Source: Escherichia phage KIT06
Strand: one strand, 5' to 3'
Length of the DNA stretch: 64,000 nucleotides
Sequence record: OQ349392.1
Position numbers and translations under genes: made by a program. The notes beneath the pieces are model-generated. The model worked only from the letters and a program-made list of their open reading frames with translations. It did no database searches and was not told the DNA's origin. How positions within the stretch are numbered: position 1 is the first letter of the stretch; every line of letters starts with the position of its first letter. Shown here in pieces: positions 4,265 through 36,602 of this stretch.

Positions 4265-4282
4265 AGCTACGGAGGAGTAAAA

Positions 4283-4546
4283 ATGAAATTTAAATTTTAT
4301 TACGCTAAACATAAAATAACTGATGAGTTTGTGTCAGTTGAATATTCTAGCGATGATGAAGGTATGATTTATACTCGTTTGGGACTATCGCATTGGGAGT
4401 CTGATACGCCTTATTTTTCAACTCCTGAAGAAATTACACGCTTAGTTAATGGTCATATGAATGACCACTGGGATGTAATTCTTACAGATAGTCTTAAAGC
4501 GGCTATTAATAGTAATGAAATGAAAATCGCTGAGATTGAACTATGA
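4283..4546 (+). CDS. Hypothetical protein (87 aa)
   Basis: ORF with SD GGAGGAG 8 nt upstream of ATG. Confidence 0.5.
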   Translation: MKFKFYYAKHKITDEFVSVEYSSDDEGMIYTRLGLSHWESDTPYFSTPEEITRLVNGHMNDHWDVILTDSLKAAINSNEMKIAEIEL

Positions 4547-7866: not shown

Positions 7867-7905
7867 GTTTACAACCAAAGCATACTGTGGTACTATACAA
7901 CTATC
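7867..7905 (+). promoter_or_regulatory. T4-type early promoter upstream of motA (GTTTAC-N18-TACTAT)
   Basis: GTTTAC 7867-7872, TACTAT 7891-7896, conserved 20-mer 7886-7905. Confidence 0.65.
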
Positions 7906-7937
7906 AACTACTGATACAGAATTACGGAGATTAGAAA

Positions 7938-8573
7938 ATGTCTAAAGTAACTTACATCATCAAAGCTTCTAACGATGTTCTGAATGAAAAAACTGCTGCG
8001 ATTTTAATTACTATTGCTAAGAAAGATTTCATTACAGCTGCAGAAGTTCGTGAGGTGCATCCAGATTTAGGTAATGCAGTAGTTAATAGTAATATTGGGG
8101 TATTGATTAAAAAAGGCCTGGTGGAGAAATCTGGTGATGGATTAATCATTACCGGTGAAGCTCAGGATATTATTTCAAATGCAGCAACTTTATACGCACA
8201 GGAAAATGCTCCGGAACTACTGAAAAAACGAGCAACTCGTAAAGCTCGCGAGATTACTTCTGATATGGAAGAAGATAAAGATTTCATGTTAAAACTTTTA
8301 GATGAAAATGGATTTGTTCTTAAAAAAGTTGAAACTTATCGTAGTAACTATCTCGCTATTTTAGAAAAACGCACTCACGGAATTCGTAATTTTGAAATTA
8401 ATAACAATGGAAATATGCGAATTTTTGGATACAAAATGATGGAACATCATATTCAGAAATTTACTGACATTGGTATGTCATGCAAAATCGCTAAAAATGG
8501 TAATGTGTATCTTGACATTAAACGCTCAGTAGAAAACATTGAAGCTGTAATCACTGTAGCATCTGAACTGTGA
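7938..8573 (+). CDS. motA: MotA middle-transcription activator (211 aa)
   Basis: 211 aa, same length as T4 MotA; position adjacent to gene 52. Confidence 0.88.
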   Translation: MSKVTYIIKASNDVLNEKTAAILITIAKKDFITAAEVREVHPDLGNAVVNSNIGVLIKKGLVEKSGDGLIITGEAQDIISNAATLYAQENAPELLKKRATRKAREITSDMEEDKDFMLKLLDENGFVLKKVETYRSNYLAILEKRTHGIRNFEINNNGNMRIFGYKMMEHHIQKFTDIGMSCKIAKNGNVYLDIKRSVENIEAVITVASEL

Positions 8574-8583
8574 GGAATAAATA

Positions 8584-8913
8584 ATGAACAAGTTAGAAAT
8601 TATCAATGAACTTCGCCGTTGTGCAGAACCCACTCAAGAGGGGTGGGACATCTGGTACCACGGAGCTTATCTTGGAACTATCGTAAAGATTAAGACTGGT
8701 AAATACATGATTATTCGTGAAAGTAAAGATGCTCCAGTAGGTATTCGCAATAATTTCATGGCAGCGATAAGTTCTTTTACAGATTCAGCTTACGAAATTT
8801 ACCTTGCTGATTATAAAGAATTTCAGGAATCTCAACCAGTTATTCGCTCAATTGGTGTTAACAAAGCTCAACAGAAAACTTTGTGGCAACGTATTAAAGG
8901 ATGGTTTAAATGA
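8584..8913 (+). CDS. Hypothetical protein (109 aa)
   Basis: ORF, SD GAGGAATAA upstream. Confidence 0.5.
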
Positions 8914-9371
8914 AAACTTTTAAAGAACGTTTAGCTCTGTTAGATAAAGCTTTGTCACGTGAGACTCCAGAAAGTTTGGCGGCTAAATTAGCTTCTTACA
9001 GTGGTGAATACACAGAACAAAATGTTTTAGATGAAGTTCCTGAAATCTGTTGGCAGTCTGCATACTGGGATGAAAACCAAAAGTACCAACGACGGATTGT
9101 TTGCGCAGCCAACCGTTTTAAATTAAAAGATGGACGAACTCTTATTATTCCAGGTGCTCGTCATTATTCTAAAGATATGGCAGCAGTTTTAGATGTAGTT
9201 AAACCTCAATTAGTTACTCAGCAAGTTTGTGATGATGACCAAGGGTTTATTGACCAATATAGTAATTATTGGACACGTGAAGAAGCAATGATTATTGCAA
9301 CTTACGCTGGACAAGTACGTGTTGAACGCGGCGGTAGTGAAAAAGAACTTTACTCTGAGGACCTTTACTAA
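8910..9371 (+). CDS. Hypothetical protein (153 aa)
   Basis: ORF with ATGA overlap to upstream gene. Confidence 0.5.
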
Positions 9372-9667
9372 TGAATATTAAAAAGTTTCAAATTGATGGA
9401 ATTATGAATCAAATCCAGGCATTGGAATATGCCAATAAAATGATGTCAACCAAATGGGGAATTTATGCCAATGAACCGGCATTTCAGTTTTGTAATATGG
9501 AATTCGCTAAAAAGCTCGTAGGAAAAGATTATGTATGTCCATTTAGTTCTCCAATAAATGGAATGCTAAAACCTGCTTTACGCGATCTTTATATCGCGAT
9601 GAACGAAGAAATGATAAAAGAACTAAAACGTCAACTAAAGGTGATTCAATTTGGCCAGGGAAATTAA
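9371..9667 (+). CDS. Hypothetical protein (98 aa)
   Basis: ORF with TAATG overlap to upstream gene. Confidence 0.5.
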   Translation: MNIKKFQIDGIMNQIQALEYANKMMSTKWGIYANEPAFQFCNMEFAKKLVGKDYVCPFSSPINGMLKPALRDLYIAMNEEMIKELKRQLKVIQFGQGN

Positions 9668-9951
9668 TTCAAAATCCGATTATTTTAATTCTCTCAATGA
9701 TAAAGATAAAATCTAATACGGCATTTTATTGTTGAGATGGGATATACTGACACACGTGATTTAAGAGAACATATATTTGAATGTGGTGTAGCTAAAAAGT
9801 TTTCATTCACATGCAAATGTTTAAGAGAGGTAATTCAGCACTATGAACAATTTAGTCGCAAAACATAATTTTAATAAAGCTTCTGTTCATAAAGATAAGA
9901 AGAAAGCGTTTAAAGAATCTAATCGCAAACAGAAACATAAGGGGAAGGTCT

Positions 9952-10230
9952 ATGATTATTGATTCTCAATCTGTGGTTCAATACACAATCAAAATTGATA
10001 TTCTAGAAAAGCTATATAAGTTTCTACCAAATTTATACCACTCAATTGTTAATGAATTAGTTGAAGAACTACATCTCGAGAATAATGATTTCTTGGTTGG
10101 AACTTATAAAGATAACTCAAAGGCGGGATATTTTTACGTAATTCCAGCTCCAGGAAAAAGTATTGATGATGTATTAAAAACTATAATGATTTATGTCCAT
10201 GATTACGAAATTGAAGATTATTTCGAATGA
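9952..10230 (+). CDS. arn: Anti-restriction nuclease inhibitor Arn-like (92 aa, acidic)
   Basis: 92 aa acidic ORF, length and position between motA and asiA match T4 Arn. Confidence 0.6.
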   Translation: MIIDSQSVVQYTIKIDILEKLYKFLPNLYHSIVNELVEELHLENNDFLVGTYKDNSKAGYFYVIPAPGKSIDDVLKTIMIYVHDYEIEDYFE

Positions 10231-10330
10231 GTCATAATCTTGAAATGGTAATCGAGCATAATGTAGCTCAGGAACATGAGTCGTTCAAGGAATTCGTAGA
10301 AAAAATTTTTGAAGAAAATAACACAGACCA

Positions 10331-10360
10331 ATTTACAAATCAAGCGTCTGATGATATTAT
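10331..10360 (+). promoter_or_regulatory. Early-type promoter upstream of asiA (ATTTAC-N18-TATTAT)
   Basis: ATTTAC 10331-10336, TATTAT 10355-10360. Confidence 0.45.
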
Positions 10361-10391
10361 AATAAAGTCAACTAATTGAGTGGTATAGTTA

Positions 10392-10664
10392 ATGAATAAA
10401 AACATTGATACAGTTCGTGAAATTATTACTGTTGCGTCTATTTTGATTAAATTTTCCAGAGAAGATATTGTTGAGAATCGTGCTAATTTTATCGCATTTC
10501 TGAATGAGATTGGAGTAACGCATGAAGGTAGAAAGTTGAATCAGAATTCATTCCGTAAAATTGTTTCTGAATTAACCCAAGAAGATAAGAAAACCCTCAT
10601 CGACGAATTCAACGAGGGTTTTGAGGGTGTATATCGATATCTAGAGATGTATACAAACAAATAA
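10392..10664 (+). CDS. asiA: Anti-sigma-70 factor AsiA (90 aa)
   Basis: 90 aa; sequence MNKNIDTVREIITVASILIKFSRED... recognised as T4 AsiA. Confidence 0.95.
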   Translation: MNKNIDTVREIITVASILIKFSREDIVENRANFIAFLNEIGVTHEGRKLNQNSFRKIVSELTQEDKKTLIDEFNEGFEGVYRYLEMYTNK

Positions 10665-11321
10665 TTATTTAGCCCTTCCTAATATTCTGGCCGCCTGAGA
10701 ACATATTGATTCAAGGCGGTCATTACTTATATGATCATTTCTATACCAGTACATGGTTATTGTTCCAGCATAGATGTTATCCAAATTAAAATATGGACAA
10801 CTGTACATGTAATTTATTTCGGGAGTAGGCTTTTTAGTTGGTAAAAAAGCAAATTTTGAATTGGAATAATAATGACGTCCATTTAAATGGACTGTATATT
10901 CATCCATAGTTTTATCAACAGGATATCCTCCAAGTGATTTTTCGGTTATTGTTGAAGGTAATCTTCCTTCGTATGCTATAATATCAACAAAATAGTTTAA
11001 GTTTTTAGGGCGGAAAGAATACACCGCACTAAAGTCTGCCTCAGATGATATGTGAACTATCTGGAGTTGTTCCAGGGCGACAGATTCAAAGCGTGCATTT
11101 CTTTCCTTTTCAATAATTTCACTGTATGTTTCATACTTTGATTGCTTATAGTACTCAAAGAAACTATCTCCCCTATACCAAACAATCGCCATTATAAACA
11201 AAAGAATTACGACAGCTACCCGGGAAGCAAGAACCTTCCCGGTAGCATTATCTTTGAACAAGCGATCTAGAACACCAAACAGAATATCAGAGGGCGAAAA
11301 TGATATTCTAGGTGCTGCCAT
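10665..11321 (-). CDS. t: Holin T (218 aa)
   Basis: 218 aa; N-terminal TM segment plus large periplasmic domain; matches T4 holin. Confidence 0.93.
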   Translation of the reverse strand: MAAPRISFSPSDILFGVLDRLFKDNATGKVLASRVAVVILLFIMAIVWYRGDSFFEYYKQSKYETYSEIIEKERNARFESVALEQLQIVHISSEADFSAVYSFRPKNLNYFVDIIAYEGRLPSTITEKSLGGYPVDKTMDEYTVHLNGRHYYSNSKFAFLPTKKPTPEINYMYSCPYFNLDNIYAGTITMYWYRNDHISNDRLESICSQAARILGRAK

Positions 11322-11351
11322 AGACCCTCCTTTTAAGGATATTTATTCAAA

Positions 11352-12143
11352 TTATACTCTTGCACCATATATTGTACCAACTTTAGTCCAAGTTGGAGCA
11401 TTACCAGTAACAGCTTTACCCGCAGCACCACCCGAGTGAACAGTTCCTCCAGTACCACCTTGAATATATGAAGATTTGCCAGCAGCTCCCAAATCTCCAC
11501 CATTTCCTCCATAGTGAACCCCAGAAACAGTACCTTTACCAGGAGCAGAAATTGTACCAGCAGATGCTGCCGCGGCACCGCCTCCAGCTTTACCTGCTGC
11601 ACCAAATGGACGACCTCCGCCGCCACCAAATATCATATCCATTTGAGGGAAAGGATGGTATCTAGCACCAGCGCCACCACCACCACCACCACCGATAATA
11701 CCATTATTGTTTATTCTTAAACGAGTTCCAATTCCGTTATTTATTGCAGTTCCTCCTGCTCCACCAGCAGAGTTACTTCCGCCATTTCCTCCTCGACCTA
11801 ATACATGAACCCCGCTATTAATATTTAAGGTAACGTATGCATTAGTTAATGAGCTAGGAAAATCTAAGCATGGAACACCAGTAGATTGAGAAACAATATT
11901 TCCTGTAATAGTAACAACAACAGGAGTACTACCTTGAGATTTGAGATAATTTATTAGCGTGTCTTTATTATAAGAATTGCTAGCACCAATGCTATAATAT
12001 ACTTCTTTAGATTGTCCAGCCATTGAGCTCATCCAACCAGGAACTGAAACACGAACTGCTTTCATTGCAGCGTCCATCCAACGTTGTCCAGTTTCATTCA
12101 CGGCAGATTCACCAATCCAGCCAGGAACACCTACAATTGCCAT
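11352..12143 (-). CDS. 38: Long-tail-fibre tip adhesin gp38, T2/T6 type (263 aa), with polyglycine motifs
   Basis: Glycine runs (GGGGGGGAG, GGGGR, GGNGG) separating variable segments; lies between gene 37 and t. Confidence 0.88.
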   Translation of the reverse strand: MAIVGVPGWIGESAVNETGQRWMDAAMKAVRVSVPGWMSSMAGQSKEVYYSIGASNSYNKDTLINYLKSQGSTPVVVTITGNIVSQSTGVPCLDFPSSLTNAYVTLNINSGVHVLGRGGNGGSNSAGGAGGTAINNGIGTRLRINNNGIIGGGGGGGAGARYHPFPQMDMIFGGGGGRPFGAAGKAGGGAAAASAGTISAPGKGTVSGVHYGGNGGDLGAAGKSSYIQGGTGGTVHSGGAAGKAVTGNAPTWTKVGTIYGARV

Positions 12144-12154
12144 TAAAAATCCTT

Positions 12155-12172
12155 AGAGGGCCGAAGCCCTCT
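12155..12172 (-). promoter_or_regulatory. Intercistronic hairpin between gene 37 stop and gene 38 start
   Basis: AGAGGGC-CGAA-GCCCTCT inverted repeat on the plus strand. Confidence 0.4.
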
Positions 12173-12173
12173 T

Positions 12174-15100
12174 TTACATAAGTTTAGATTCAAGTTCTTT
12201 TACACGAGCAGAAAGTGTTTTCACAGCTTCAACCAGAAGAGCAATCTGGGCTTGAGAAGAAACAGTGAGTATTTTATTACCCTTAATATCTTCAACTTCA
12301 CGAACTGCTTCAGGTAAAACATCTTGCAGTGTTTGAGCCACAATACCCGCTTCAGTCTGAACAATTTCACCACCTATATAGTCAGCTTTATCATAGATTA
12401 AACCATCAAGCTGTTCAACCTTTTCAAGAGCATTTTCAATAGGTCTGAAATTAGATTTCAAACGAATATCAGAACGAATATAAACGTTTGGGGCGTTTAT
12501 ATTCATGTCAGAATAGGTGTCACCTGTCTGGAATCTCATTCGGCGAGCTGCATTGGTCCAAACTTCTAAAAGACCGTCGCCAACCTGTCTGAAACCAGTA
12601 TCACTATCACCTATTACAATTGAGTTACCACCAAATCCGTTGCTTGTGTTAACACCAAGCGCCCCGGTAGAACCACAAGTCAATTTAGGGGTATAGAATG
12701 TACCGTCCATATCAAAAGTCCAACGAGCCTGTTGCCCTGATGCACTGTCACCACGCATGCGAATCATGCCTTGGCGCCAAGTACCAGGAACACCTAACCA
12801 TCCAAACTCAAACGATTGGCGATAACCCGCGTCAGTTAAAAGACTGTATCCAGAAAATAACGGGTAATAAGCTTGACTTGTCTTGGGAATGCTGCCAGTA
12901 TTCGCTAAGAATGCAGAACGGTCACGAGTCACATCAGAAATATCACCAAAGCTAGTGGACCACTGTCCTGCAACTTTAACTCGTGAATTAATGTTTCCAT
13001 TAATAGTAACATCTTTACCAAAAGAAGTATTTTCGTCAAGACGAACAGTACCAGCAGTCATATCAATTGAAAATGGTCGTTTTCCATTCCAACCACCTTC
13101 TGTTGCTGTGTTATCGCCGTCTGAAGCGTTTTTGTCGGTCAGTAAAATATAGAAGGTTCCACCATCATTTCGAAATAAAGCAGAATTAGAACCTGACCTA
13201 TCAGAATTACTCGTAATACGAATACCGGTTTGGTTATTAATAGCAATTTCAGATTCTGCTACATAACGCTTAACTTTACCGCGATCAACCAAGTTATTAA
13301 GAACATTAGCAACTTGACCGTTAACTGCTGTATCTGGAAGAGCATCTACAGGTGATTGTGTAGATGAGTTAATACCAATAACGCTAACAGTAGCATTTTC
13401 GGTACATGACCATTCACACGCTAGTTGATTACAATATGTTCCGGCATAAACATAAATGTCATATGTATTTCCAGAGACATTGTTAACTGCAATATTTCTA
13501 AATGCTGCGCTATACAGTCCAGATGTTCTTGTATATAATACAGCATTTAAGTCAGCAGGTCTTTCATTACCAGTACGTAAAATAATTTCAGCAATATTGC
13601 ATTGTGTGAATAATCCACTATTAAATCCAGAACCACCGGCTATTTTAAAGAAGACCGTAGAAGTAGATTGTGGCATTGTTACTGTTGCAAACTTATACCA
13701 TCCAGAGGTTGCTCCATAAGTAATAAATCCAGAATTAACTTTACGATTTAGCGTGGTATTTAAGTTGGCAAAGTTTCCTGAACCATTGGTAATATTACCG
13801 TCAGTTCCTAGTTGGGCATTGCCGACTTTAAGAGGCTTAGTAATATCGACAGAATCAGAATTTAATGCAATACCATGTGAATGTGTGTAGCTGTGCATAC
13901 GAACGACATTGCCGCCATCACCAATACCCAAATACCATTTAGGCACATCAGCCTTACGTCCTTGAATGAAGTTAGAAGACTCTTGTGTTGGAGCATTTAT
14001 TCTAATAGCATCGCTACTTGCATTAACTGTAATACGTTGACCAGCCGTAGTTCCAGCCACTTCTACTTTAAATCTTCCACCACCGATATCTACATCATGA
14101 TCCATGGAAACTTTACCATTACTTAATGTAATATAGAATGGACGTAAATTAGAAATGCCGCCTGATTCACCGGCATTCTGCGGAGTTGGAATAATATAAA
14201 ACTTATCTTCAGAACGACGGAAAATTGCGCCATATTCAGCATTCCAAATTCTTAATGCATCTGATGTTCCGCCGATTTTAACTTGCCCAGTAATAGAAGA
14301 ACCACCTTGGACAAACAAGCCGTTCTTCATTGTAACATTACCGTTTAAAGTGCTTAAACCATCAACTTTAAGATTTCCTGCAGTGCTAATAGAACCGTTA
14401 GCATTAACTGGTCCATTGAACTGGGTTACAACGGGCCCAACAGTTTCAGAACCTTCTGGGCGCTGGCGTTGTGAATAAAAATAATAACCTTGTGAATCAT
14501 ATACTTCAAATACAGTTTCTCTAATACCGGGAACTGAGTTAAAGGCATTACCCCATGCTTTAATTGAAACAGTATTTTTATTCTGTCCGTTACGAGTGCC
14601 TGCATCCCAGTTAATAGTTTTTGTCCCGTCAACACCTGTAGGCGCTTTAAATGACAAAGCATTGGTATTATCATCACCTGATAAAAATAATCCAGTACGC
14701 ATTGAAATACGTCGGGTTGAGTCAAATGTACCATCTGCTCTAATAGCAACTCTGTTAGAACCAGTGTTAATATCTAAAATTCCTGGTTCAACAAGGAGAC
14801 CTTGGGACATACCAACAGCCATACGACCTGTACCGCGGAAATAGTGATACATTTTAGAATTACTGTTATAACCGATATGAGTCTGACCATCGCCGTTATT
14901 ATTACCATCAATATCGGTACGCGCAGTAAACATTGCTTGGTTGTTATTTGGGAAATCCCAAGTAGAACCGGAATCTCGACTATAACCAACCATCAATTTT
15001 TTAGTACTATTAATACCATTATTCAAAATGGTAGCGGATGAAATACCGTTAGCCATCAGGTCATAAACGCCATCGCGGACCCATTTAATACCGGTATCGT

Positions 15101-16085
15101 TATCGCCAATCGCAATACCAATAGAAATTGCAGAATCAAGTGGATAACGGCCATTTGTACCACTATCAGGAAGACCTACTGAAATAGATTTACCTGCGGT
15201 AATACGTCCAGTGGTATCAAATGCCCACTGGAAAGACGAAGGTCCTACGCCGGTCCACCAAGAAATTTCTTGTGGCTTTCCTGAACGACAGTCAACTATT
15301 TCATGGAAAATGCTAGAAGTATTTGAAGCCCGCATTTTACGCATGTAGTTCAATCCGTTTGTATCACGGTCAGAACCATCTGCTGGTGGATTATAAATCC
15401 AAGTAGGTAAAGAAACAATGTCATAACCCGTGTCATTATTCGGTATAAAGGTTTTAGAACTCAGGTTAATATTTTTTGTATTGACGCGCGGTGCAGAAAC
15501 AAATCCAGTTGCCGAGTTAATATTGCCTGATGCAGAAATATTACCTGCACGGACTTCAATACTGCCATTATCTACAATAAAACTACCGTTACGATTAAAA
15601 GTCCAATATTTTGAATCACCAGATTCATTGATATATTGAATTTTAAAACTACCTTCGTTTACTAACGTACCAACAGAAAAAGTTCCATCTTTATAGCGTT
15701 GTTTAATTAGCGGATGGTATTCTGAAGTAGAAGTCGTTGAACTCAAATCGGTAAAGATAGGAGCTTTATTTTTATGTTGATTTGCCCAAGCACCATTACC
15801 AGCAGTTTTAGGTAAAAATTCAATATATTTTCCTGCATAAACAAACTGATTTCCATTAAGATTATATGTACCGTTCTGTAAATAATCTCCAGTTTGAGTG
15901 ATATTTCCACTGATATTACCGCCAGCGGAAATGCTTAAGTCAATGATATTTCCTGAATCATCTTTAGTAAAAATTGTTCTATCTTTTAAGTTTATAGCCA
16001 ATTCACCTTCGGCTAATACTGAAGCAGCAGGACGTGCACCTGCGGTTTTGCTTCTTTTAAATTGTATTTGTTTTAAAGTAGCCAT
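12174..16085 (-). CDS. 37: Long tail fibre distal subunit gp37 (1303 aa) with C-terminal intramolecular chaperone domain
   Basis: N-terminal half matches T4 gp37; C-terminus has S-D-I-R-L-K self-cleavage-like motif followed by coiled-coil tail. Confidence 0.9.
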   Translation of the reverse strand: MATLKQIQFKRSKTAGARPAASVLAEGELAINLKDRTIFTKDDSGNIIDLSISAGGNISGNITQTGDYLQNGTYNLNGNQFVYAGKYIEFLPKTAGNGAWANQHKNKAPIFTDLSSTTSTSEYHPLIKQRYKDGTFSVGTLVNEGSFKIQYINESGDSKYWTFNRNGSFIVDNGSIEVRAGNISASGNINSATGFVSAPRVNTKNINLSSKTFIPNNDTGYDIVSLPTWIYNPPADGSDRDTNGLNYMRKMRASNTSSIFHEIVDCRSGKPQEISWWTGVGPSSFQWAFDTTGRITAGKSISVGLPDSGTNGRYPLDSAISIGIAIGDNDTGIKWVRDGVYDLMANGISSATILNNGINSTKKLMVGYSRDSGSTWDFPNNNQAMFTARTDIDGNNNGDGQTHIGYNSNSKMYHYFRGTGRMAVGMSQGLLVEPGILDINTGSNRVAIRADGTFDSTRRISMRTGLFLSGDDNTNALSFKAPTGVDGTKTINWDAGTRNGQNKNTVSIKAWGNAFNSVPGIRETVFEVYDSQGYYFYSQRQRPEGSETVGPVVTQFNGPVNANGSISTAGNLKVDGLSTLNGNVTMKNGLFVQGGSSITGQVKIGGTSDALRIWNAEYGAIFRRSEDKFYIIPTPQNAGESGGISNLRPFYITLSNGKVSMDHDVDIGGGRFKVEVAGTTAGQRITVNASSDAIRINAPTQESSNFIQGRKADVPKWYLGIGDGGNVVRMHSYTHSHGIALNSDSVDITKPLKVGNAQLGTDGNITNGSGNFANLNTTLNRKVNSGFITYGATSGWYKFATVTMPQSTSTVFFKIAGGSGFNSGLFTQCNIAEIILRTGNERPADLNAVLYTRTSGLYSAAFRNIAVNNVSGNTYDIYVYAGTYCNQLACEWSCTENATVSVIGINSSTQSPVDALPDTAVNGQVANVLNNLVDRGKVKRYVAESEIAINNQTGIRITSNSDRSGSNSALFRNDGGTFYILLTDKNASDGDNTATEGGWNGKRPFSIDMTAGTVRLDENTSFGKDVTINGNINSRVKVAGQWSTSFGDISDVTRDRSAFLANTGSIPKTSQAYYPLFSGYSLLTDAGYRQSFEFGWLGVPGTWRQGMIRMRGDSASGQQARWTFDMDGTFYTPKLTCGSTGALGVNTSNGFGGNSIVIGDSDTGFRQVGDGLLEVWTNAARRMRFQTGDTYSDMNINAPNVYIRSDIRLKSNFRPIENALEKVEQLDGLIYDKADYIGGEIVQTEAGIVAQTLQDVLPEAVREVEDIKGNKILTVSSQAQIALLVEAVKTLSARVKELESKLM

Positions 16086-16093
16086 AAGTCCTC

Positions 16094-16756
16094 TTAATAA
16101 TAGCCGAAATCTTGAACAGAATCCTTAATTACGATTTGGTCAAATCGTGGAACGTGTGAAGGTTGAGATGCAGGATTCTGCGAGAAAAAGTTTGGTGCGG
16201 TTAAGTTTCCCGTCATAGTGTCACCAGATCGTAACACTCTAGAGTTCGCATTTGCCGTAACAGTATTTATTGCTCCATCAACATAGTCCTTCCTAGTAAG
16301 GTCATTAGCTGATACAGGAGAAACTGCATTACTTCTTATTTGACCTACTGCTGTCACGACGCCTTTTGTACTAATATCACCATTACGTGCATTAATTACA
16401 ACAGTTCGGTCTGCTGAACCTTGTGATGATTTAAAACCAATACCATTCCACGAAACGATGTCAATATTTGCCATAGCAAAAGTAGCTGCATCACCGTTGC
16501 CTGGATAAACACCGCACTGTTGACTACTACCTATAGTAGGAACATGTACTCCTCCATTAAATCGAACAGTCGCGGCATAAGTACCACCATTAGCTTTAGA
16601 AACGAAATCGTTATCTGCAGCTTGTGGTTTATTATATTCTGAATATATTTTAAATGATTTATAGAGTACATCGTCACCGGCTGGATTCAATGGAAAATTT
16701 CCTTGATGCCAAATGACAGAGCCTCCAGTTGTTGAACCTACTTTTAAATCAGCCAT
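16094..16756 (-). CDS. 36: Long tail fibre hinge subunit gp36 (220 aa)
   Basis: Length and position match T4 gp36. Confidence 0.85.
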   Translation of the reverse strand: MADLKVGSTTGGSVIWHQGNFPLNPAGDDVLYKSFKIYSEYNKPQAADNDFVSKANGGTYAATVRFNGGVHVPTIGSSQQCGVYPGNGDAATFAMANIDIVSWNGIGFKSSQGSADRTVVINARNGDISTKGVVTAVGQIRSNAVSPVSANDLTRKDYVDGAINTVTANANSRVLRSGDTMTGNLTAPNFFSQNPASQPSHVPRFDQIVIKDSVQDFGYY

Positions 16757-16779
16757 TGTATGCCCCTTTATTTTAATAG

Positions 16780-16787
16780 TATTTATA
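16780..16787 (-). promoter_or_regulatory. Late promoter TATAAATA for genes 36-37-38
   Basis: Plus-strand TATTTATA is TATAAATA on the minus strand, about 24 nt upstream of the gene 36 ATG. Confidence 0.6.
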
Positions 16788-16794
16788 AAGAAAA

Positions 16795-16822
16795 AGGGAA
16801 CCCGAAGGCTCCCTCAATTTAT
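16795..16822 (-). terminator. Hairpin terminator downstream of gene 35
   Basis: AGGGAGCC-TTCG-GGTTCCCT hairpin (one G-U pair) plus T-run on the minus strand. Confidence 0.5.
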
Positions 16823-17934
16823 ACTTCTCTAAATTCTTGCCCAAACACTTTACCAGTTTTAGACGATGCTTGTGTAGGAAGTACCATTATATCCGGAGGT
16901 GAAGCAGATTCACAGATATAATTAACGCGAATGCCGTTGACGCCAAATTCAGCAGGTTTCGAAATACCTCCATTTCTTGACACTTCAGAAAAGCTTAAAT
17001 TTCTCATGCCACCTTGACCAGCTTGCGCAGTTCTTTGCGCGTATATCGTAAATCCCACAGCGTTTTCTGGAACAACCACATAATCTTCCTTTAATTCCCA
17101 AGACCCAGCTTGTCCGGTAAACTCAGCTTGTGTCGAGGAAATATATCCATTAGATGCATTATAAAAGCGGATAGATATATTTGTAGTTCCAAGCGCAAGT
17201 AAATCTGCATCGGCATATAACTGAGCTTTAAGATAAAGAACATCGCCAGGAATTAAATTATAATCAGAGAGTTTACTTATAGCAGCTGAAGTTGGCAATC
17301 GCGCAATTTCGTTATTGGTTCCGCCAACTGCCGACATAAATTGATCAACGCTTTCATATGTTCTTTTTGGAAACCCGGTAGCTCCAACGTCTTCTAAACT
17401 GTCAAATACAACATCTAAAATAGTTTGATAATCATCTGTGCTTTTTCTATTACTTAATTTGACATGCTCTAATGCAATAGCTCTTTTAGAAGAAGTGTAA
17501 AAAGCAGCATATGATACGTCGAATCTTGACAATATAGAATCAGATGGAAAAGCAGACGTTCCTGCGGTTCTTAGCCAAGATACTACTTCAGGAGGAAAAT
17601 TAACCTTTCCGCTAGTTAATATAGCAACAAGTCTATTATTCGTCAAAGAATTCATGAAACTAACAAAAGCAGCTGATGTAGTATCATTTGAAGTAGAAAA
17701 AGCATATGACTTACTATCAACTAATGCTCCTGTGGAAGGGTCAAAAACTCTTAAATGAAGACCTGCGCTAAATGTTTGACTTCCGACAGGATTATCCTGA
17801 AATTTAACGTACGGTCCTGCAGTAGAAAGCGGGCAAGAACCCGCTATACTTATTTTGTATCTTACTGAATTACTTTCCGATAAAAATGGCGTTTGGACAT
17901 ATCCTTGTCCAAACTCTGCCATAAATTTTTCCAT
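16819..17934 (-). CDS. 35: Long tail fibre hinge connector gp35 (371 aa)
   Basis: Length and position match T4 gp35. Confidence 0.85.
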   Translation of the reverse strand: MEKFMAEFGQGYVQTPFLSESNSVRYKISIAGSCPLSTAGPYVKFQDNPVGSQTFSAGLHLRVFDPSTGALVDSKSYAFSTSNDTTSAAFVSFMNSLTNNRLVAILTSGKVNFPPEVVSWLRTAGTSAFPSDSILSRFDVSYAAFYTSSKRAIALEHVKLSNRKSTDDYQTILDVVFDSLEDVGATGFPKRTYESVDQFMSAVGGTNNEIARLPTSAAISKLSDYNLIPGDVLYLKAQLYADADLLALGTTNISIRFYNASNGYISSTQAEFTGQAGSWELKEDYVVVPENAVGFTIYAQRTAQAGQGGMRNLSFSEVSRNGGISKPAEFGVNGIRVNYICESASPPDIMVLPTQASSKTGKVFGQEFREV

Positions 17935-17942
17935 AATACCTC

Positions 17943-20900
17943 TTATTCAACCCATTCAAATTTAACCGTTTTATTCGCTGGGTCAGGAATAATGCGAACA
18001 TTACCAATTCGTAAGAAATCACGAATAGTAAGATTCCCCATTGTAGCATTATCAGATGGTAAAGCACCAATATCAGATGGTTGAGGAGGGTTACCTCCGT
18101 CAAATACCTGAACAAAACTCGACCAAGAGTTTTTGGTTTTCTGCCATGTACGTGTCCAGCGAGTGGTACGTGCTTCTGGAGTCGTTGGATAAGTAATCCA
18201 ATCTTGGTAAAGCGAATCAAGTGTGTTACCAAATTGAGTCAATGTACCAGGAGATTTAACTTCTTCGCCACGTTCTAAGTATGGAAGTCCAGTCACTTCA
18301 TTAGTTTTTTCAACCATTTTAAAATAACCCGGGAATTGGTTATAAGTAGCTGAATCATTAATATCGATTGACCAGAATCCTACAGTATCAGATGTTGGCG
18401 CACGGGTATATAAGTCAGATGTTTTAATGCCCTGAGAACGAATTCTCGAGTTAACAGTTAAGCCACCTGAGTTTATAGTAACACCTTTGGCAACGATTAA
18501 GCCTTCACCAATCGTTACTTGACCGGATGCATTGTTAATAGCTAAAGGACGTAATCCATTAAAACCACCAGTTTGGTCACCTGAATTAGTTAGCATAAAA
18601 TAGACATTAGCACCATCATTACGAATAAAGAATCCGTAATTACCACTAATAGCTCTAAAAGCATTCGATGATTTGCTAATGAATTCACCATTGGCTGTAA
18701 CTGAACGACCGAATGTTGCAGTGCCATTCACATTCATCAAACCGGAAGCATTAACATTTATTGGCATTACAGTACCATTAATGATAAACGCTATACTACC
18801 ATCTTTATTGCGTTGAGAATAAAAGTGATGAGATGTTTCATCGCCAACTTCAAACACGGTAGAACGAGTCGTATCCGAGCCGCCGCCAAACTGATTTCCC
18901 CATACTCTGATAGTCATCGTCTGTGCTGGGTTAGTTCCAGTTTGAGGTCCTTTTTCAAAAATCAGACGAGTTGCTGTTCCAGAGTTAGAAATAGTTAATG
19001 TACTATTTGCCGAAACTGAACCACCAAACGTAGCAGTACTAGATGATACAAGAGGGGCACTCAGATTCGTTTGTTGGGTTAAGGTTAGTGAACCATTAAC
19101 CGTCTGTGCAATATCCCTACGAATGAACTGGGATGAATCTAGACCATCCAGTAAATTACTATCTACGGCTTTTGCTTTTAATGGCAAGTAATTTGCTAAT
19201 ACACGGTTTAATTCATACGGTGATACTGCATAGCTATTTTTCTCGTATAATTCTAACGACTGTGTTGAACCAACTGTATCATTACCAACGAATGTAATTG
19301 AACCAGATGAAGTTTTAACAAAGCCTCTTATCGCAGTAGTAGCTGCCCAAGTAGGTTCACTCTGCGCAATCCATTTTAAATTTTTTGGAGATACAGCAGT
19401 ATTTGCTGACGTTCCAGCCACAGTTTCAGTCTGAGTTGCAACTTTAATAACACCTTCTTGCGATTCGGTAGATTTAGTACCTAAAAGCTTTTTAGGAGTT
19501 ATTAAAACATTATCCAATGTTCCTGCAGCAGCTTCAACTTGTGTAGCTACACGAAGTGTACCACGCTGTGTCTCATTTGCTTCAAGAATATTAAGGGTAT
19601 AATGGTCCCAGAGAGTTCCTGATTCAACTAATCCAGATAGAGCAACAACAGAAGTACGATCAGTACTATTAAATCTGGTTTTAATTTTTAATGGTGTAGA
19701 GATACGAGTATCGTCGACGCCCGCGTCGAATTCAACTTGTGTAGCAATTTCAGCTATACCACTTAAACTTTCAGTTGCTATACGGTCATTTAAAGTTTTA
19801 GGAGTGACTGCACGAGTATAATCAGTTCCTGTATTAACTTCACTTTGCGTAGCAATTTCAATTAAACCAATTCTTCCATCAGTTGATGTCTTTTTATGTA
19901 ACGTTTCTGGCGTTACAACAGCATTTGCCCATCCTTGCTGACTTTGTCCAGCAATTACTTCACTTTCAACTGCTAAAATTACTGCACCCTGTTGAGTAGG
20001 CGTAGCTTTATACTGATCCAAAGCTTTAGGTGAAACAACTAAATTATTAGTGTTTTTATTATAAACGTTTGTACCATTTAATTCACGACTAGAAGCTGGA
20101 GTAGCTCCTGCGGTAGATACAAAGGTTACAATACCAGATAATGATTCAGAACCTTGACGAGCTTGAAGCTTTTTAGGAGTGATGATTGTAGTATCATCAG
20201 TACCTGCATTAGTTTCCTGTTGCGTAGCAATTTCAGCAACACCTCTGCGAGTTTCAGTAGCAGTTCTTTCATTCAGCTTTTTAGGAGTGATGATAATATC
20301 GTCAGCAAAAGAGAATGTGGTGTTCTGATTCACTTGAGCAGTAGTTGCTATTCTTGCAATACCTCTGCGAGTTTCAGTAGCAGTGCGATTAGCTAACGTT
20401 TCTGGAGTAATTGCTAATTCTTTTTGTGGAGAATTTTCTAAATCGACGTTAGCTTGAGCTTGTGTAGCTAAAGCAATTACGCCTAATCTTGCTCTAGTAG
20501 AATCATTTAAAGAATCAACTCTTTCTACGGTTGGAACGTTTTGCTGTACAACCCAATATTTTCCATCAGAATCTTCTATATAAGCAAGCTCTAAAACTGG
20601 AACATAATTAGTTTCACCGTTAAAAACCAATTCTTGAACAGTTACCCATTTAGTTTCAGGCGGATATTCTGAACGTTTTGGGAATTGCAGCAATTGAACT
20701 GAAGAAGCAATTTTATCTTCACCGGCAGCTTTGATTTTAACTGTTTGTCCTTTTCTCATGTAATTCATGGAAATTTTAACAGTATCACCAACAGAAATAT
20801 TAGTTGGAAGCTGAAGTTCAATTGTTTGAGCTGTTCCGTTATTCGCACCAAATACCATAACTTCTTCATTTGGACGAATATTTGAATTAGTTGTTATAAT

Positions 20901-21812
20901 ACGTAAACGTGCTTTATTATCCCCGTCAAACAATCTCCACAATTTCTCATTATCATCAAACATCAAGAAACCGTCAATCGTTGTACGGCCTTCAATGGAA
21001 TGAGTTCCAACTTCTTGTATTGAAGTCGTTTCATCGTATGTAGTAACAATTGTATGATAAAGCGGATTTAGTTTATCTAAATCGACGAAATTAATAATAT
21101 CGCCATGATTAGCAAATCTTGGAAGTTTAACATTAATTGGTGCAGCAGAAGTAAATCTACGCACGATAAAATCGTTGGATTGCGCTTGATAAGTATTCGC
21201 TGGTGTTACAACTATAGCTTCTCTACTATAATCAGCAACATACATTTGCCACAGACGATTACTAAAAATTAAAACTAACTGTGATTTTGGATGAGTCATT
21301 AGTACTGAACGTACTTGTTCGCCTCTGAAGTTTACAATACTTTGCACTGGAGCTACAATTAAAACTTGGTTAACTCCAGGTTTTCCTCCAATATCTTGGA
21401 GAACGATAGTGTCACCGTCAATTGGGGAAGATGGTAAAGTAAATGTAATATCATTACCAGCTGCAGTGTTAACCGAAATAGCTTCACCGGATTTTAATTG
21501 ATATGAACCAGATGAAACTGTGATCCAGTTAGCATCAGTACGCAATGCTCTCCAGCGTCCACTATTAAAAGTTCCTGCCGGTTTTGGAATATCATTTATA
21601 GCAGCCCAAAAGCGGTTATCATAAATGATTACAAAATCTTTTAAATATCCACGAGTTGGATCATATTGTTGAACTGTGTTTTCTTGAATTAGGTAATCAA
21701 CGTTAACACCGTCAGTTCCTACGGCACGATCAGCTAAAGCTACGTTGATTATTTTATCGCCACCTGCGTCCAGACCATCTTCTGCTCTGAACTTTCTTTT
21801 AATCTCGGCCAT
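17943..21812 (-). CDS. 34: Long tail fibre proximal subunit gp34 (1289 aa)
   Basis: 1289 aa, same length as T4 gp34; internal roughly 36-40 aa repeats. Confidence 0.9.
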   Translation of the reverse strand: MAEIKRKFRAEDGLDAGGDKIINVALADRAVGTDGVNVDYLIQENTVQQYDPTRGYLKDFVIIYDNRFWAAINDIPKPAGTFNSGRWRALRTDANWITVSSGSYQLKSGEAISVNTAAGNDITFTLPSSPIDGDTIVLQDIGGKPGVNQVLIVAPVQSIVNFRGEQVRSVLMTHPKSQLVLIFSNRLWQMYVADYSREAIVVTPANTYQAQSNDFIVRRFTSAAPINVKLPRFANHGDIINFVDLDKLNPLYHTIVTTYDETTSIQEVGTHSIEGRTTIDGFLMFDDNEKLWRLFDGDNKARLRIITTNSNIRPNEEVMVFGANNGTAQTIELQLPTNISVGDTVKISMNYMRKGQTVKIKAAGEDKIASSVQLLQFPKRSEYPPETKWVTVQELVFNGETNYVPVLELAYIEDSDGKYWVVQQNVPTVERVDSLNDSTRARLGVIALATQAQANVDLENSPQKELAITPETLANRTATETRRGIARIATTAQVNQNTTFSFADDIIITPKKLNERTATETRRGVAEIATQQETNAGTDDTTIITPKKLQARQGSESLSGIVTFVSTAGATPASSRELNGTNVYNKNTNNLVVSPKALDQYKATPTQQGAVILAVESEVIAGQSQQGWANAVVTPETLHKKTSTDGRIGLIEIATQSEVNTGTDYTRAVTPKTLNDRIATESLSGIAEIATQVEFDAGVDDTRISTPLKIKTRFNSTDRTSVVALSGLVESGTLWDHYTLNILEANETQRGTLRVATQVEAAAGTLDNVLITPKKLLGTKSTESQEGVIKVATQTETVAGTSANTAVSPKNLKWIAQSEPTWAATTAIRGFVKTSSGSITFVGNDTVGSTQSLELYEKNSYAVSPYELNRVLANYLPLKAKAVDSNLLDGLDSSQFIRRDIAQTVNGSLTLTQQTNLSAPLVSSSTATFGGSVSANSTLTISNSGTATRLIFEKGPQTGTNPAQTMTIRVWGNQFGGGSDTTRSTVFEVGDETSHHFYSQRNKDGSIAFIINGTVMPINVNASGLMNVNGTATFGRSVTANGEFISKSSNAFRAISGNYGFFIRNDGANVYFMLTNSGDQTGGFNGLRPLAINNASGQVTIGEGLIVAKGVTINSGGLTVNSRIRSQGIKTSDLYTRAPTSDTVGFWSIDINDSATYNQFPGYFKMVEKTNEVTGLPYLERGEEVKSPGTLTQFGNTLDSLYQDWITYPTTPEARTTRWTRTWQKTKNSWSSFVQVFDGGNPPQPSDIGALPSDNATMGNLTIRDFLRIGNVRIIPDPANKTVKFEWVE
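19400..20460 (-). repeat. Degenerate intragenic tandem repeats (about 110 bp units) within gene 34
   Basis: Recurring TTTTAGGAGTGATGAT and CCTCTGCGAGTTTCAGTAGCAGT blocks; repeated I-T-P-K-K-L...A-T-Q motifs in the protein. Confidence 0.6.
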
Positions 21813-21845
21813 TCTCCCGGGCTCCTATTGTGTTTTCAATAATAA

Positions 21846-21853
21846 GTATTTAT
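21846..21853 (-). promoter_or_regulatory. Late promoter TATAAATA for gene 34
   Basis: Plus-strand TATTTATA about 34 nt upstream of the gene 34 ATG (minus strand). Confidence 0.6.
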
Positions 21854-21856
21854 ACT

Positions 21857-21886
21857 TGTTTACTTTAAGATTCGGATGGTATATAA
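21857..21886 (+). promoter_or_regulatory. Early promoter for rnh (GTTTAC-N18-TATAAT)
   Basis: GTTTAC 21857-21862, TATAAT 21881-21886. Confidence 0.65.
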
Positions 21887-21916
21887 TAGAAATCTCACTA
21901 ATTGAACGAGGTTCAT

Positions 21917-22834
21917 ATGGATTTAGAAATGATGCTAGATGAAGATTACAAAGAAGGAATCTGCTTAATTGACTTTAGTCAAATTGCGCTTTCAACTGCT
22001 CTAGTAAACTTCCCAGATAAAGAAAAAATTAATTTATCAATGGTTCGTCATTTGATATTGAACTCAATTAAGTTTAATGTCAAAAAAGCAAAAACTCTTG
22101 GATATACTAAAATTGTATTGTGTATAGATAACGCGAAATCTGGATACTGGCGTCGTGATTTCGCTTATTACTATAAGAAAAACCGTGGAAAAGCACGAGA
22201 AGAATCTACTTGGGACTGGGAAGGTTATTTTGAATCCAGCCATAAAGTTATAGATGAATTGAAAGCTTATATGCCATACATTGTTATGGATATTGATAAG
22301 TATGAAGCAGATGACCATATTGCTGTTTTGGTTAAAAAGTTCTCTTTAGAAGGACACAAGATTTTAATCATTTCATCGGATGGTGACTTTACTCAACTTC
22401 ACAAATACCCAAATGTTAAGCAATGGTCACCGATGCACAAGAAATGGGTTAAAATTAAAAGCGGTTCTGCTGAAATTGACTGTATGACTAAAATTCTTAA
22501 GGGCGATAAAAAGGATAACGTTGCTTCAGTTAAAGTACGATCTGACTTTTGGTTTACCAGAGTTGAAGGCGAACGAACTCCTTCAATGAAAACCTCTATT
22601 GTTGAAGCTATTGCTAATGACCGTGAGCAAGCTAAGGTGCTTCTCACCGAATCTGAGTATAATCGATACAAAGAAAATTTAGTTCTAATTGATTTTGATT
22701 ATATTCCTGATAATATTGCTTCAAACATTGTGAATTACTATAATTCATATAAATTACCACCGCGCGGCAAAATTTATTCATATTTTGTAAAAGCGGGTCT
22801 TTCTAAATTAACTAATAGCATTAATGAATTTTGA
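21917..22834 (+). CDS. rnh: RNase H / 5'-3' flap exonuclease (305 aa)
   Basis: Starts MDLEMMLDEDYKEG as T4 RNase H; SD GAGGT 6 nt upstream; track ORF begins 15 nt earlier. Confidence 0.9.
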   Translation: MDLEMMLDEDYKEGICLIDFSQIALSTALVNFPDKEKINLSMVRHLILNSIKFNVKKAKTLGYTKIVLCIDNAKSGYWRRDFAYYYKKNRGKAREESTWDWEGYFESSHKVIDELKAYMPYIVMDIDKYEADDHIAVLVKKFSLEGHKILIISSDGDFTQLHKYPNVKQWSPMHKKWVKIKSGSAEIDCMTKILKGDKKDNVASVKVRSDFWFTRVEGERTPSMKTSIVEAIANDREQAKVLLTESEYNRYKENLVLIDFDYIPDNIASNIVNYYNSYKLPPRGKIYSYFVKAGLSKLTNSINEF

Positions 22835-22842
22835 GGTGAATA

Positions 22843-23112
22843 ATGGCTAAAAAAGAAATGGTTGAATTTGATGAAGCTATCCATGGCGAAGACTTAGCTA
22901 AATTTATCAAAGAAGCATCTGATCATAAACTGAAAATTTCCGGTTATAATGAATTGATTAAAGACATTCGAATTCGTGCCAAAGATGAACTTGGCGTTGA
23001 TGGCAAGATGTTTAATCGTCTATTAGCTTTGTATCATAAAGATAACCGTGATGTGTTTGAAGCTGAAACTGAAGAGGTAGTTGAACTTTATGACACAGTT
23101 TTCTCTAAATGA
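22843..23112 (+). CDS. dsbA: Double-stranded DNA binding protein DsbA (89 aa)
   Basis: 89 aa, length and position between rnh and gene 33. Confidence 0.75.
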   Translation: MAKKEMVEFDEAIHGEDLAKFIKEASDHKLKISGYNELIKDIRIRAKDELGVDGKMFNRLLALYHKDNRDVFEAETEEVVELYDTVFSK

Positions 23113-23428
23113 TATTCGTCCGGTCGATGAGACCGGTCTTTCAGAAAAAGAACTTTCAATTAAGAAAGAAAAGGATGAAATTGCAAAGCTTCTTGACCGT
23201 CAAGAAAATGGATTTATTATTGAAAAAATGGTAGAAGAGTTTGGAATGAGTTATCTTGAAGCTACAACAGCATTCTTAGAAGAAAATTCTATTCCTGAAA
23301 CTCAATTTGCTAAATTTATTCCTTCGGGTATAATTGAAAAAATTCAGTCAGAAGCTATTGACGAAAATCTTTTACGTCCTTCTGTTGTTCGTTGTGAAAA
23401 AACTAATACATTAGATTTTCTACTATGA
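23090..23428 (+). CDS. 33: Late-transcription co-activator gp33 (112 aa)
   Basis: ATG at 23090 gives 112 aa (T4 gp33 length); track ORF uses upstream TTG. Confidence 0.8.
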   Translation: MTQFSLNDIRPVDETGLSEKELSIKKEKDEIAKLLDRQENGFIIEKMVEEFGMSYLEATTAFLEENSIPETQFAKFIPSGIIEKIQSEAIDENLLRPSVVRCEKTNTLDFLL

Positions 23429-24078
23429 TTAAACTCCGCATGCCTGCTGGTGGTGAAAGATACATTGATGGTAAATCAGTTTATAAATTATACTTAATGA
23501 TAAAACAACATATGAATGGAAAGTATGATGTAATTAAGTATAATTGGTGCATGCGGGTGTCTGATGCCGCTTATCAAAAGCGAAGGGATAAGTATTTTTT
23601 CCAGAAGTTATCAGAAAAATATAAATTAAAGGAACTTGCTTTAATCTTTATAAGCAATCTTGTTGCTAACCAAGATGCTTGGATTGGTGACATCTCTGAC
23701 GCTGATGCACTTGTGTTTTATCGTGAATATATCGGACGCTTAAAGCAAATTAAATTTAAGTTTGAAGAAGATATTCGCAACATTTATTATTTTAGTAAAA
23801 AAGTTGAAGTTTCTGCTTTTAAAGAAATCTTTGAGTATAATCCAAAAGTTCAATCAAGTTATATTTTTAAACTACTTCAATCGAATATAATTTCGTTTGA
23901 GACGTTTATCTTGCTTGATTCGTTTTTAAATATAATTGATAAACATGATGAACAGACTGATAATTTAGTCTGGAATAATTATTCTATAAAGTTAAAGGCT
24001 TATAGAAAAATTTTAAATATTGACTCACAGAAAGCTAAAAGTGTTTTTATTGAAACTGTGAAATCTTGTAAGTACTAA
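23425..24078 (+). CDS. 59: Helicase loader gp59 (217 aa)
   Basis: 217 aa; ATGA overlap with gene 33; precedes gene 32. Confidence 0.85.
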   Translation: MIKLRMPAGGERYIDGKSVYKLYLMIKQHMNGKYDVIKYNWCMRVSDAAYQKRRDKYFFQKLSEKYKLKELALIFISNLVANQDAWIGDISDADALVFYREYIGRLKQIKFKFEEDIRNIYYFSKKVEVSAFKEIFEYNPKVQSSYIFKLLQSNIISFETFILLDSFLNIIDKHDEQTDNLVWNNYSIKLKAYRKILNIDSQKAKSVFIETVKSCKY

Positions 24079-24079
24079 T

Positions 24080-24103
24080 TGCTTATTATAAATAGATTAT
24101 AAT
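24080..24103 (+). promoter_or_regulatory. Promoter region upstream of gene 32 with MotA-box-like TGCTT, a TATAAATA octamer and TATAAT
   Basis: TGCTTA 24080-24085, TATAAATA 24087-24094, TATAAT 24098-24103. Confidence 0.5.
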
Positions 24104-24177
24104 TATCTCACTGACCAGCTATGAGGTCATACATCGTCATAGCACCAACTGTTAATTAAATTAAAAAGGAAATAAAA

Positions 24178-25086: not shown

Positions 25087-25108
25087 TAGATTATATTACT
25101 AATTAATT

Positions 25109-25133
25109 GGGGACCCTAGAGGTCCCCTTTTTT
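25109..25133 (+). terminator. Rho-independent terminator after gene 32
   Basis: GGGGACC-CTAGA-GGTCCCC hairpin plus TTTTTT. Confidence 0.7.
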
Positions 25134-25158
25134 ATTTCAAAAATTTTTTCACAAAACG

Positions 25159-25197
25159 GTTTACAACCAAAGCATACTGTGGTACTATACAACTATC
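25159..25197 (+). promoter_or_regulatory. T4-type early promoter (GTTTAC-N18-TACTAT), near-identical copy of the motA promoter cassette
   Basis: GTTTAC 25159-25164, TACTAT 25183-25188; 70 bp identical to 7836-7905 except 1 nt. Confidence 0.65.
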
Positions 25198-26194: not shown

Positions 26195-27021
<827 letters not shown>

Positions 27022-27029
27022 AATAACGC

Positions 27030-27389: not shown

Positions 27390-27434
27390 TTATTTAGCTT
27401 CATAAAATGTATTATAATTTATATAAGGTACTAA

Positions 27435-35394: not shown

Positions 35395-36602
<1,208 letters not shown>

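Follow-up and report, generated by a model that had tools for sequence, protein, structure and literature searches.

The distal tail-fibre locus of KIT06

Escherichia phage KIT06 (sequence record OQ349392.1) carries genes 37 and 38 of its long tail fibres on the minus strand, at positions 11352-16085 of the 64,000-nucleotide stretch analysed here (the window). A preliminary description of this DNA had presented the two genes as a T2/T6-type distal-fibre module in an otherwise T4-collinear genome, and a comparison with a composite of T4 (NC_000866) bears out this picture. From rIIA to gene 24, the whole 64-kb window runs parallel to the reversed T4 sequence, 88.5% of its length being matched at a nucleotide identity of about 95%, and 11347-15939 is by far its largest T4-unlike stretch, interrupted solely by an island of 73% identity (14185-14633). 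On the left, T4 identity resumes at 11346, 6 nucleotides beyond the stop codon of gene 38, and on the right at 15940, in codon 49 of gene 37. The open reading frames reproduce exactly the limits and lengths first described for both genes (Table 1); they belong to a minus-strand series formed by gene t, the frames of 263 and 1303 residues and then frames of 220, 371 and 1289 residues, with genes 37 and 38 situated between gene 36 and the holin gene t. The genomic position and the flanks are those of T4, the amino acid identity of the neighbouring proteins being 96% for gp34, 98% for gp35, 98% for the t product and 85% for gp36.

This locus is very probably a Tequatrovirus cassette for the distal long tail fibre, configured as in T2/T6, in which a self-chaperoning gp37 is combined with a gp38 adhesin presenting its loops to Tsx. 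The order of a gene 37 ending in an intramolecular chaperone (IMC) domain, gene 38 and gene t is the same in T2, T6, REP4, AV115, TB004 and others. The T2-type arrangement of gp37 and gp38, the alternation of glycine-rich motifs and hypervariable segments, the structure and the recombinational exchange between conserved linkers all belong to textbook knowledge of T-even phages. The module is a standard and well-characterised one, and its genome had been deposited and annotated before, the publication identifying Tsx as the receptor.

Table 1. Features of the distal tail-fibre cassette of KIT06 and of its borders, in positions of the window
Feature	Position	Strand	Description
Gene t, holin	10665..11321	(-)	Pfam Phage_holin_T; 98% amino acid identity to T4; conserved left flank
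Gene 38	11352..12143	(-)	263 residues, ATG start; receptor-binding adhesin of T2 type, forming the long tail fibre's monomeric tip
gp38 residues 117-263	11355..11795	(-)	Domain of glycine-rich motifs and hypervariable segments, polyglycine-II sandwich, receptor-binding part; from glycine content (33%) and entropy profile
gp38 residues 223-237	11433..11477	(-)	Hypervariable segment; entropy profile
gp38 residues 204-212	11508..11534	(-)	Hypervariable segment; entropy profile
gp38 residues 184-194	11562..11594	(-)	Hypervariable segment including K185; entropy profile and alignment
gp38 residues 160-171	11631..11666	(-)	Hypervariable segment ARYHPFPQMDMI; highest column entropy of the family, 2.57 bits
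gp38 residues 1-45	12009..12143	(-)	N-terminal attachment domain; Pfam Gp38_N over residues 1-42; alignment to 6F45_D
37/38 spacer hairpin	12155..12172	(-)	UUCG tetraloop; -13.4 kcal/mol, z = -1.9; terminator-like scan match
Gene 37	12174..16085	(-)	1303 residues, ATG start; T2-type distal half-fibre subunit
gp37 residues 1205-1303	12177..12473	(-)	C-terminal IMC, Peptidase_S74; Pfam PF13884, 9e-14
gp37 residues ~930-1129	12700..13299	(-)	Distal shaft segment; 85-100% identical to LH2, AV115 (Mosigvirus), Phaginator and Bas43
Gene 37 segment	13300-13699		Closest to Phaginator, 97-100% identity
Gene 37 segments	13700-14299 and 14600-15900		Closest to REP4, 89-100% identity
gp37 residues ~485-634	14185..14633	(-)	Shaft segment with residual T4 DNA similarity (73%)
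Gene 37 segment	14185-14750		Closest to AV122 and FJ1, ~96% identity
gp37 residues 1-49	15940..16085	(-)	N-terminus, joint to gp36; conserved with T4 and all T-evens; 97-98% nucleotide identity to T4; right-hand linker for recombination
Gene 36	16094..16756	(-)	Distal hinge connector, 220 residues; Pfam Phage_T4_gp36; 85% amino acid identity to T4
Centre of gene 36	16300-16600		Closest to AV115 and LH2, 75-98% identity
TATAAATA	16780..16787	(-)	T4 late-promoter consensus, 24 nucleotides upstream of gene 36

The gp38 adhesin and the C-terminal chaperone of gp37

The gene 38 product (WCS66656.1, annotated as 'receptor recognizing protein') is confidently assigned to the T2-type gp38 tail-fibre adhesin family. 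It contains 23% glycine overall and 33% over residues 117-263, it matches the Pfam families GP38 (PF05268; 6e-69, 232.6 bits) and Gp38_N (PF21721; 7e-18, 64.7 bits), for both of which the curated cut-off is 25 bits, and it falls in PHROG 2056 ('tail fiber protein; host specificity', 1e-100). The protein aligns with the gp38 of phage S16 (PDB 6F45_D) over residues 8-261 with E = 4e-49. Its AlphaFold model, computed from an alignment of 61 sequences (predicted local distance difference test, pLDDT, 92.8; predicted template-modelling score, pTM, 0.86), retrieved the same chain from the PDB with E = 3e-22, template-modelling scores of 0.78/0.82 and 42% identity, the other significant matches being only gp38 chains of PP01 (9V85). 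The model matches the three-part fold of S16 gp38, which consists of an attachment domain, a beta-helix and a polyglycine-II sandwich. The glycine-rich adhesin of the preliminary description is thereby recovered, and the roughly 183-residue T4 assembly chaperone, from which that description had set it apart, shows no detectable similarity to it (best BLASTP E = 12), with no full-length alignment between the two.

The attachment domain at the N-terminus is 96% identical to that of T2 and 100% identical to that of AV115. In the alignment, its residues W9, W22 and W37 fall opposite the three tryptophan 'prongs' of S16 gp38 (6F45_D), and W9 and W22 are conserved in at least 90% of 61 homologues drawn from a database of 5.8 billion clusters. 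In S16 the N-terminal tryptophans insert into the tip of gp37 (PMC7917993), and by analogy the N-terminal domain of KIT06 gp38 would dock on the tip of its own gp37. Along the rest of the protein, blocks of invariant glycines (residues 116-121, 127-131, 152-158, 174-181, 213-216 and 239-247) alternate in the same 61 homologues with the four high-entropy segments of Table 1, an architecture of glycine-rich motifs and hypervariable segments known for this family from the literature. The first of these segments has a PFPQM core which is also found in the alignment with T6 gp38. In the second, position 185 is an alanine in six of the seven closest gp38 proteins compared, the exception being TB004 which has a lysine, like KIT06.

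The gene 37 product (WCS66657.1, annotated as 'tail fiber protein') matches PHROG 1699 over its full length and contains the Pfam domains Gp34_trimer (residues 522-652), gp37_trimer and Peptidase_S74. Positions 1-58 of the PF13884 model match residues 1205-1262, and the domain begins exactly at S1205, within the motif NVYIR|SDIRLK (the bar marks the predicted cut) of the S-D-x-R-x-K type. The same motif is found in T2 and a close one, DVYIR|SDSRLK, in T6; the cleavage motif is present in these two phages and in seven other T2-type gp37 proteins compared, and absent from T4. Drexler, Riede and Henning reportedly described, in 1986, the autoproteolytic release of the T2 gp37 chaperone. The motif predicts that gp37 of KIT06 cleaves itself between R1204 and S1205, which would leave a mature protein of residues 1-1204 and release 99 residues. 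The SDIRLK sequence aligns with S|SDRRIK of S16 (6F45_A), for which the cleavage site of the IMC is documented and cleavage frees the chaperone, exposing the docking surface of gp38 (PMC7917993). With S16 (PDB 6F45; Dunne et al. 2018) KIT06 shares the fold of gp38, its tryptophan prongs and polyglycine motifs and, in gp37, an IMC bearing the SD-R-K site; S16 differs in binding OmpC, in its loops and in the part of gp37 upstream of the tip, which is unrelated to that of KIT06.

The relation of gp37 to T4 needed some correction of what had first been described. It was stated that the N-terminal half of gp37 matches T4 gp37, and residues 1-664 are indeed homologous to T4 residues 1-640, but at only 46% identity; in bins of 50 residues the identity is 96% for residues 1-50, 18-34% for residues 51-350 and 42-82% for residues 351-650, and near-identity is confined to the first bin. 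At the DNA level, matches to T4 within gene 37 are found only at 15940-16085 and in the island 14185-14633. Similarity collapses after residue 650. The statement that the C-terminal half is different holds without such amendment: no alignment to the T4 collar or needle was obtained past T4 residue 640, except for short low-scoring repeats, and the Collar (PF07484) and Phage_fiber (HxH repeats) domains which Pfam finds in the C-terminal 250 or so residues of T4 gp37 are replaced here by the S74 IMC. Residues 92-170 of gp37 (nucleotides 15576-15812) resemble residues 683-770 of T4 gp37 with 36% identity and E = 2e-10; they appear to be a shuffled shaft repeat, the T4 counterpart of which lies just before the collar and not in the needle. 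No internal repeats were found in gp37 by self-BLASTP at E < 1e-3, and its only repeat-like similarity is to gp34 (residues 493-706 and 955-1040 against gp34 residues 952-1146 and 1045-1128).

These comparisons also bear on whether the locus could be arranged as in T4, where a collar and needle at the end of gp37 themselves bind OmpC or lipopolysaccharide (LPS), and where gp38 is an unrelated chaperone not found in the virion. Under such an arrangement the tip of KIT06 gp37 would bind the receptor and the downstream gene would encode nothing but a non-virion assembly chaperone, a possibility in keeping with the same gene positions as T4 37 and 38 and with the homology of the first 664 residues of gp37. 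However, gp38 has no similarity to T4 gp38 and belongs confidently to the adhesin family by both sequence and fold, and gp37 has neither Collar nor needle domains and carries the S74 IMC at its C-terminus instead. The T4-type arrangement is refuted by the Pfam content of the two proteins and by the failed alignment to T4 gp38, and we consider its probability practically nil. T2 and T6, for their part, have the same Pfam content as KIT06 in both gp37 and gp38.

Receptor specificity and proposed mechanism

KIT06, a Tequatrovirus with a genome of 167,059 bp, does not infect the Δtsx strain of the Keio collection and shows a strong dependence on waaC (PMC11274021), and its attachment was likened to that of T6 (PMC11274021). 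The closest relatives of its gp38 are TB004 (99.6% identity), AV115 (97%) and Bas43 (97%). Over the hypervariable segments, AV115 differs by the single substitution K185A and Bas43 by K185A and Q228K, most of the remaining differences from these two phages lying outside the variable segments, at residues 48-77 and at residue 261. Tsx was experimentally determined to be the receptor of AV114 and AV115 (PMC10844046), and Bas43 (TadeuszReichstein) is Tsx-dependent according to the BASEL supplementary table. By analogy with these relatives, gp38 is strongly predicted to be the Tsx binder of KIT06.

T2 (AP018813) has the gene order, domain content and NVYIR|SDIRLK motif of KIT06, a gp38 attachment domain 96% identical and a gp37 which aligns end to end at 51% identity, highest at both ends, the gp37 of KIT06 being 38 residues shorter. 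T6 (AP018814) shares with KIT06 the adhesin architecture, the Tsx receptor, the PFPQM core and the IMC motif, but its gp37 of 994 residues can be aligned only at residues 1-75 and over the last 270 or so (30% identity). The description of the module as T2/T6-type therefore stands for domain content and cleavage motif, and has to be qualified for gp37, which is T2-like over its full length and T6-like only at its ends. For gp38 the balance is different: it is 55% identical to T6 overall, and its residues 161-263 are 56% identical to T6 versus 43% to T2, which uses FadL/OmpF and not Tsx. Judged by its sequence, gp38 has a T2-like attachment domain and a receptor-binding part closer to T6.

A T2-type adhesin could in principle recognise another receptor, such as OmpF/FadL in T2 or OmpA in K3, Ox2 and AV108, the Tsx dependence of KIT06 then arising elsewhere. 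The T2 affinity of the first 45 residues of gp38 (96%) and of the whole gp37 would fit this, and so would the precedent of AV108, whose gp38 is like those of AV109, AV114 and AV115 but differs in the third and fourth hypervariable segments (HVS3 and HVS4) and uses OmpA (PMC10844046). We regard this alternative as very improbable, given that KIT06 agrees in its hypervariable segments with the Tsx-dependent Bas43 and AV115 but for K185A (and Q228K in Bas43), that residues 161-263 differ strongly from T2 (43%), and that the phage fails on Δtsx (PMC11274021).

Several points nevertheless weigh against the explanation of the locus favoured here. The dependence of KIT06 on Tsx and LPS was established without mention of gp37 or gp38 (PMC11274021), and the link between KIT06 gp38 and Tsx is an indirect one. 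Lysine 185, in a hypervariable segment, differs from the alanine of the experimentally typed relatives. Cleavage of the gp37 chaperone is deduced solely from its motif, and the TATAAATA element upstream of gene 36, a likely promoter for genes 36-37-38 (and possibly t), is assigned by its position alone. Finally, infection was weakened on the btuB-defective strain RK4792 and BtuB was named as a receptor (PMC11274021), and weak infection of this strain is not explained by a pure Tsx adhesin. This partial BtuB dependence is the only loose end. A fibre tip of dual specificity, recognising Tsx and less efficiently BtuB, would explain the weak infection of RK4792 and could be connected with K185, which is unusual among the close relatives of gp38. 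Yet RK4792 and the Keio parent are not isogenic, the effect was no more than a weakening of infection, use of BtuB is not reported for any gp38-type adhesin in the cited literature, and K185 is also found in TB004; dual specificity is, in our opinion, quite improbable.

With gp38 as an adhesin for Tsx, the assembly and function of the cassette may be proposed as follows. Late transcription from the promoter that precedes gene 36 would cover genes 36, 37 and 38, and gp37 would trimerise with the aid of its own C-terminal IMC (residues 1205-1303). The IMC would then cut itself off between R1204 and S1205 and depart, exposing a hydrophobic trimeric tip on which one gp38 monomer would dock through its N-terminal domain (residues 1-45) and its tryptophan prongs. 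The four hypervariable loops, carried by the conserved polyglycine scaffold, would be presented to Tsx, the nucleoside channel of the outer membrane. Reversible binding of gp38 to Tsx would set the host range, and the short fibres, encoded outside the window, would bind the LPS core irreversibly. Family knowledge and the published receptor genetics of KIT06 together suggest that the module is a determinant of host range. What this analysis brings is to tie the published Tsx phenotype to gene 38 and to candidate loops at residues 160-171, 184-194, 204-212 and 223-237, to predict the maturation site of gp37, and to provide a segment-by-segment donor map of the mosaic fibre, which can serve to predict host range or to engineer fibres. 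Its importance beyond annotation is small and its practical value modest.

Mosaic structure, transcription signals and other features of the window

The donor map was obtained from nucleotide identities to ten phages in bins of 100 nucleotides, complemented by targeted searches. The T4-unlike stretch 11347-15939, and gene 37 with it, is pieced together from segments that match a different phage each, at 90-100% identity (Table 1). The distal shaft segment (12700-13299) is absent from or divergent in REP4, TB004 and SA20RB, and AV122, one of the two closest relatives of 14185-14750, was classed as a phage with T4-type fibres (PMC10844046). Mosaicism reaches into gene 36, beyond 11352-16085: in its central part (16300-16600) the identity to T4, T2 and TB004 reaches only 56-83%, against 86-98% to AV115 or LH2. 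No phage of the collection searched could be the donor of the entire module; the best candidate, REP4, is 96% identical over 85% of the DNA, with 83% amino acid identity in gp37. Other phages match the segments that REP4 does not, so that close relatives exist for every part of the module. Raised G+C was likewise rejected as a sign of foreign origin: it amounts to 0.40-0.46 at 11250-13000 versus about 0.33-0.37 in adjacent DNA, but this is due at least partly to the glycine codons of gp38, and all relatives of the segment are T-even phages.

Three conserved linkers border or divide the cassette, namely gene t, the segment 12000-12499 (the 3' part of gene 37 encoding the IMC and the 5' part of gene 38 encoding the attachment domain) and the segment 15900-16300 (the 5' part of gene 37 and the 3' part of gene 36). 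Their identity is 91-100% among the eight closest T2-type phages compared, and 82-99% for T2 itself. Because the cassette is flanked by linkers nearly identical across T-evens, homologous recombination can swap all or parts of it. This pattern matches the recombination between conserved motifs which Tétart and co-workers reportedly described in 1998. Exchange is not limited to one genus: AV115, a Mosigvirus whose gp37 is 77% identical to that of KIT06, has a nearly identical gp38, and the adhesin has therefore crossed genus boundaries. The gp37 of Bas43 is a different mosaic from that of KIT06.

A bolder reading of the patchwork is that gp37 is a fresh natural chimera across two fibre architectures and two genera, which might have acquired a second receptor specificity. 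It is motivated by the fact that gp37 is a singleton in clusters at 90% identity of a 15-billion-sequence collection, by the shaft segment of about 570 nucleotides resembling AV122, by the distal shaft and adhesin shared with AV115, by the partial BtuB dependence and by K185. If true, it would join shaft DNA of a T4-type needle-tip fibre to a distal shaft and an adhesin shared with Mosigvirus; we hold it to be improbable.

Two hairpins and one promoter-like element accompany these genes. The spacer between genes 37 and 38 has only 30 nucleotides and is filled by the first hairpin, followed by the AAGGA Shine-Dalgarno sequence of gene 38; this hairpin may act as an mRNA stabiliser or as an attenuator. 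A second GC-rich hairpin with a UUCG tetraloop lies on the minus strand in the spacer between genes 35 and 36 (16794-16815), and the late-promoter consensus TATAAATA comes directly after it. Between 10,600 and 21,800 no exact copy other than this one occurs; another is found at 21847-21854, upstream of gene 34. The motif occurs nine times in the window for 9.35 expected, a number not above chance, and only the copies ahead of genes 36 and 34 are proposed as promoters, on account of their location. A late promoter upstream of gene 36 is annotated likewise in phage SA20RB. A scan for sigma-70 promoters was uninformative for late genes.

Outside the fibre cassette, shorter T4-unlike stretches occur at 4274-4513, 26218-26419, 27027-27431, 35401-35696, 39612-39766 and 45714-46142, and in some of them lie small open reading frames with no Pfam match, at 27030-27389 (119 residues, between frd and td) and at 26195-26440 (81 residues). 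Several mobile elements of T4 (segG, the td intron with I-TevI, mobE with nrdB.1, the nrdB intron with I-TevIII, and segE) are missing at collinear junctions, located by comparison with the T4 annotation at 24074/24115, 27982/27984, 31113/31169, 31842/31845 and 59472/59492. Two full-length paralogues of the Alt-type ADP-ribosyltransferase stand in tandem on the plus strand, at 44904-47000 (698 residues) and 47004-49061 (685 residues); they are 41% identical to each other and both match Pfam ADPrib_exo_Tox. At the second position T4 has the remnants alt.-1 and alt.-2 beside one alt gene, and 47697-49041 has no match to T4 DNA. A contig assembled from reads (contig 6 of Logan SRR17680687, 17,282 nucleotides) is 100% identical to 7892-25173 of the window. 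Finally, gp35 (16819-17934, minus strand) matches over residues 58-126 the Pfam family ILEI (interleukin-like epithelial-mesenchymal transition inducer, PF15711; 3e-8), an unexpected family for a fibre hinge protein, and the same match is recorded for the copy of gp35 on the Logan contig.

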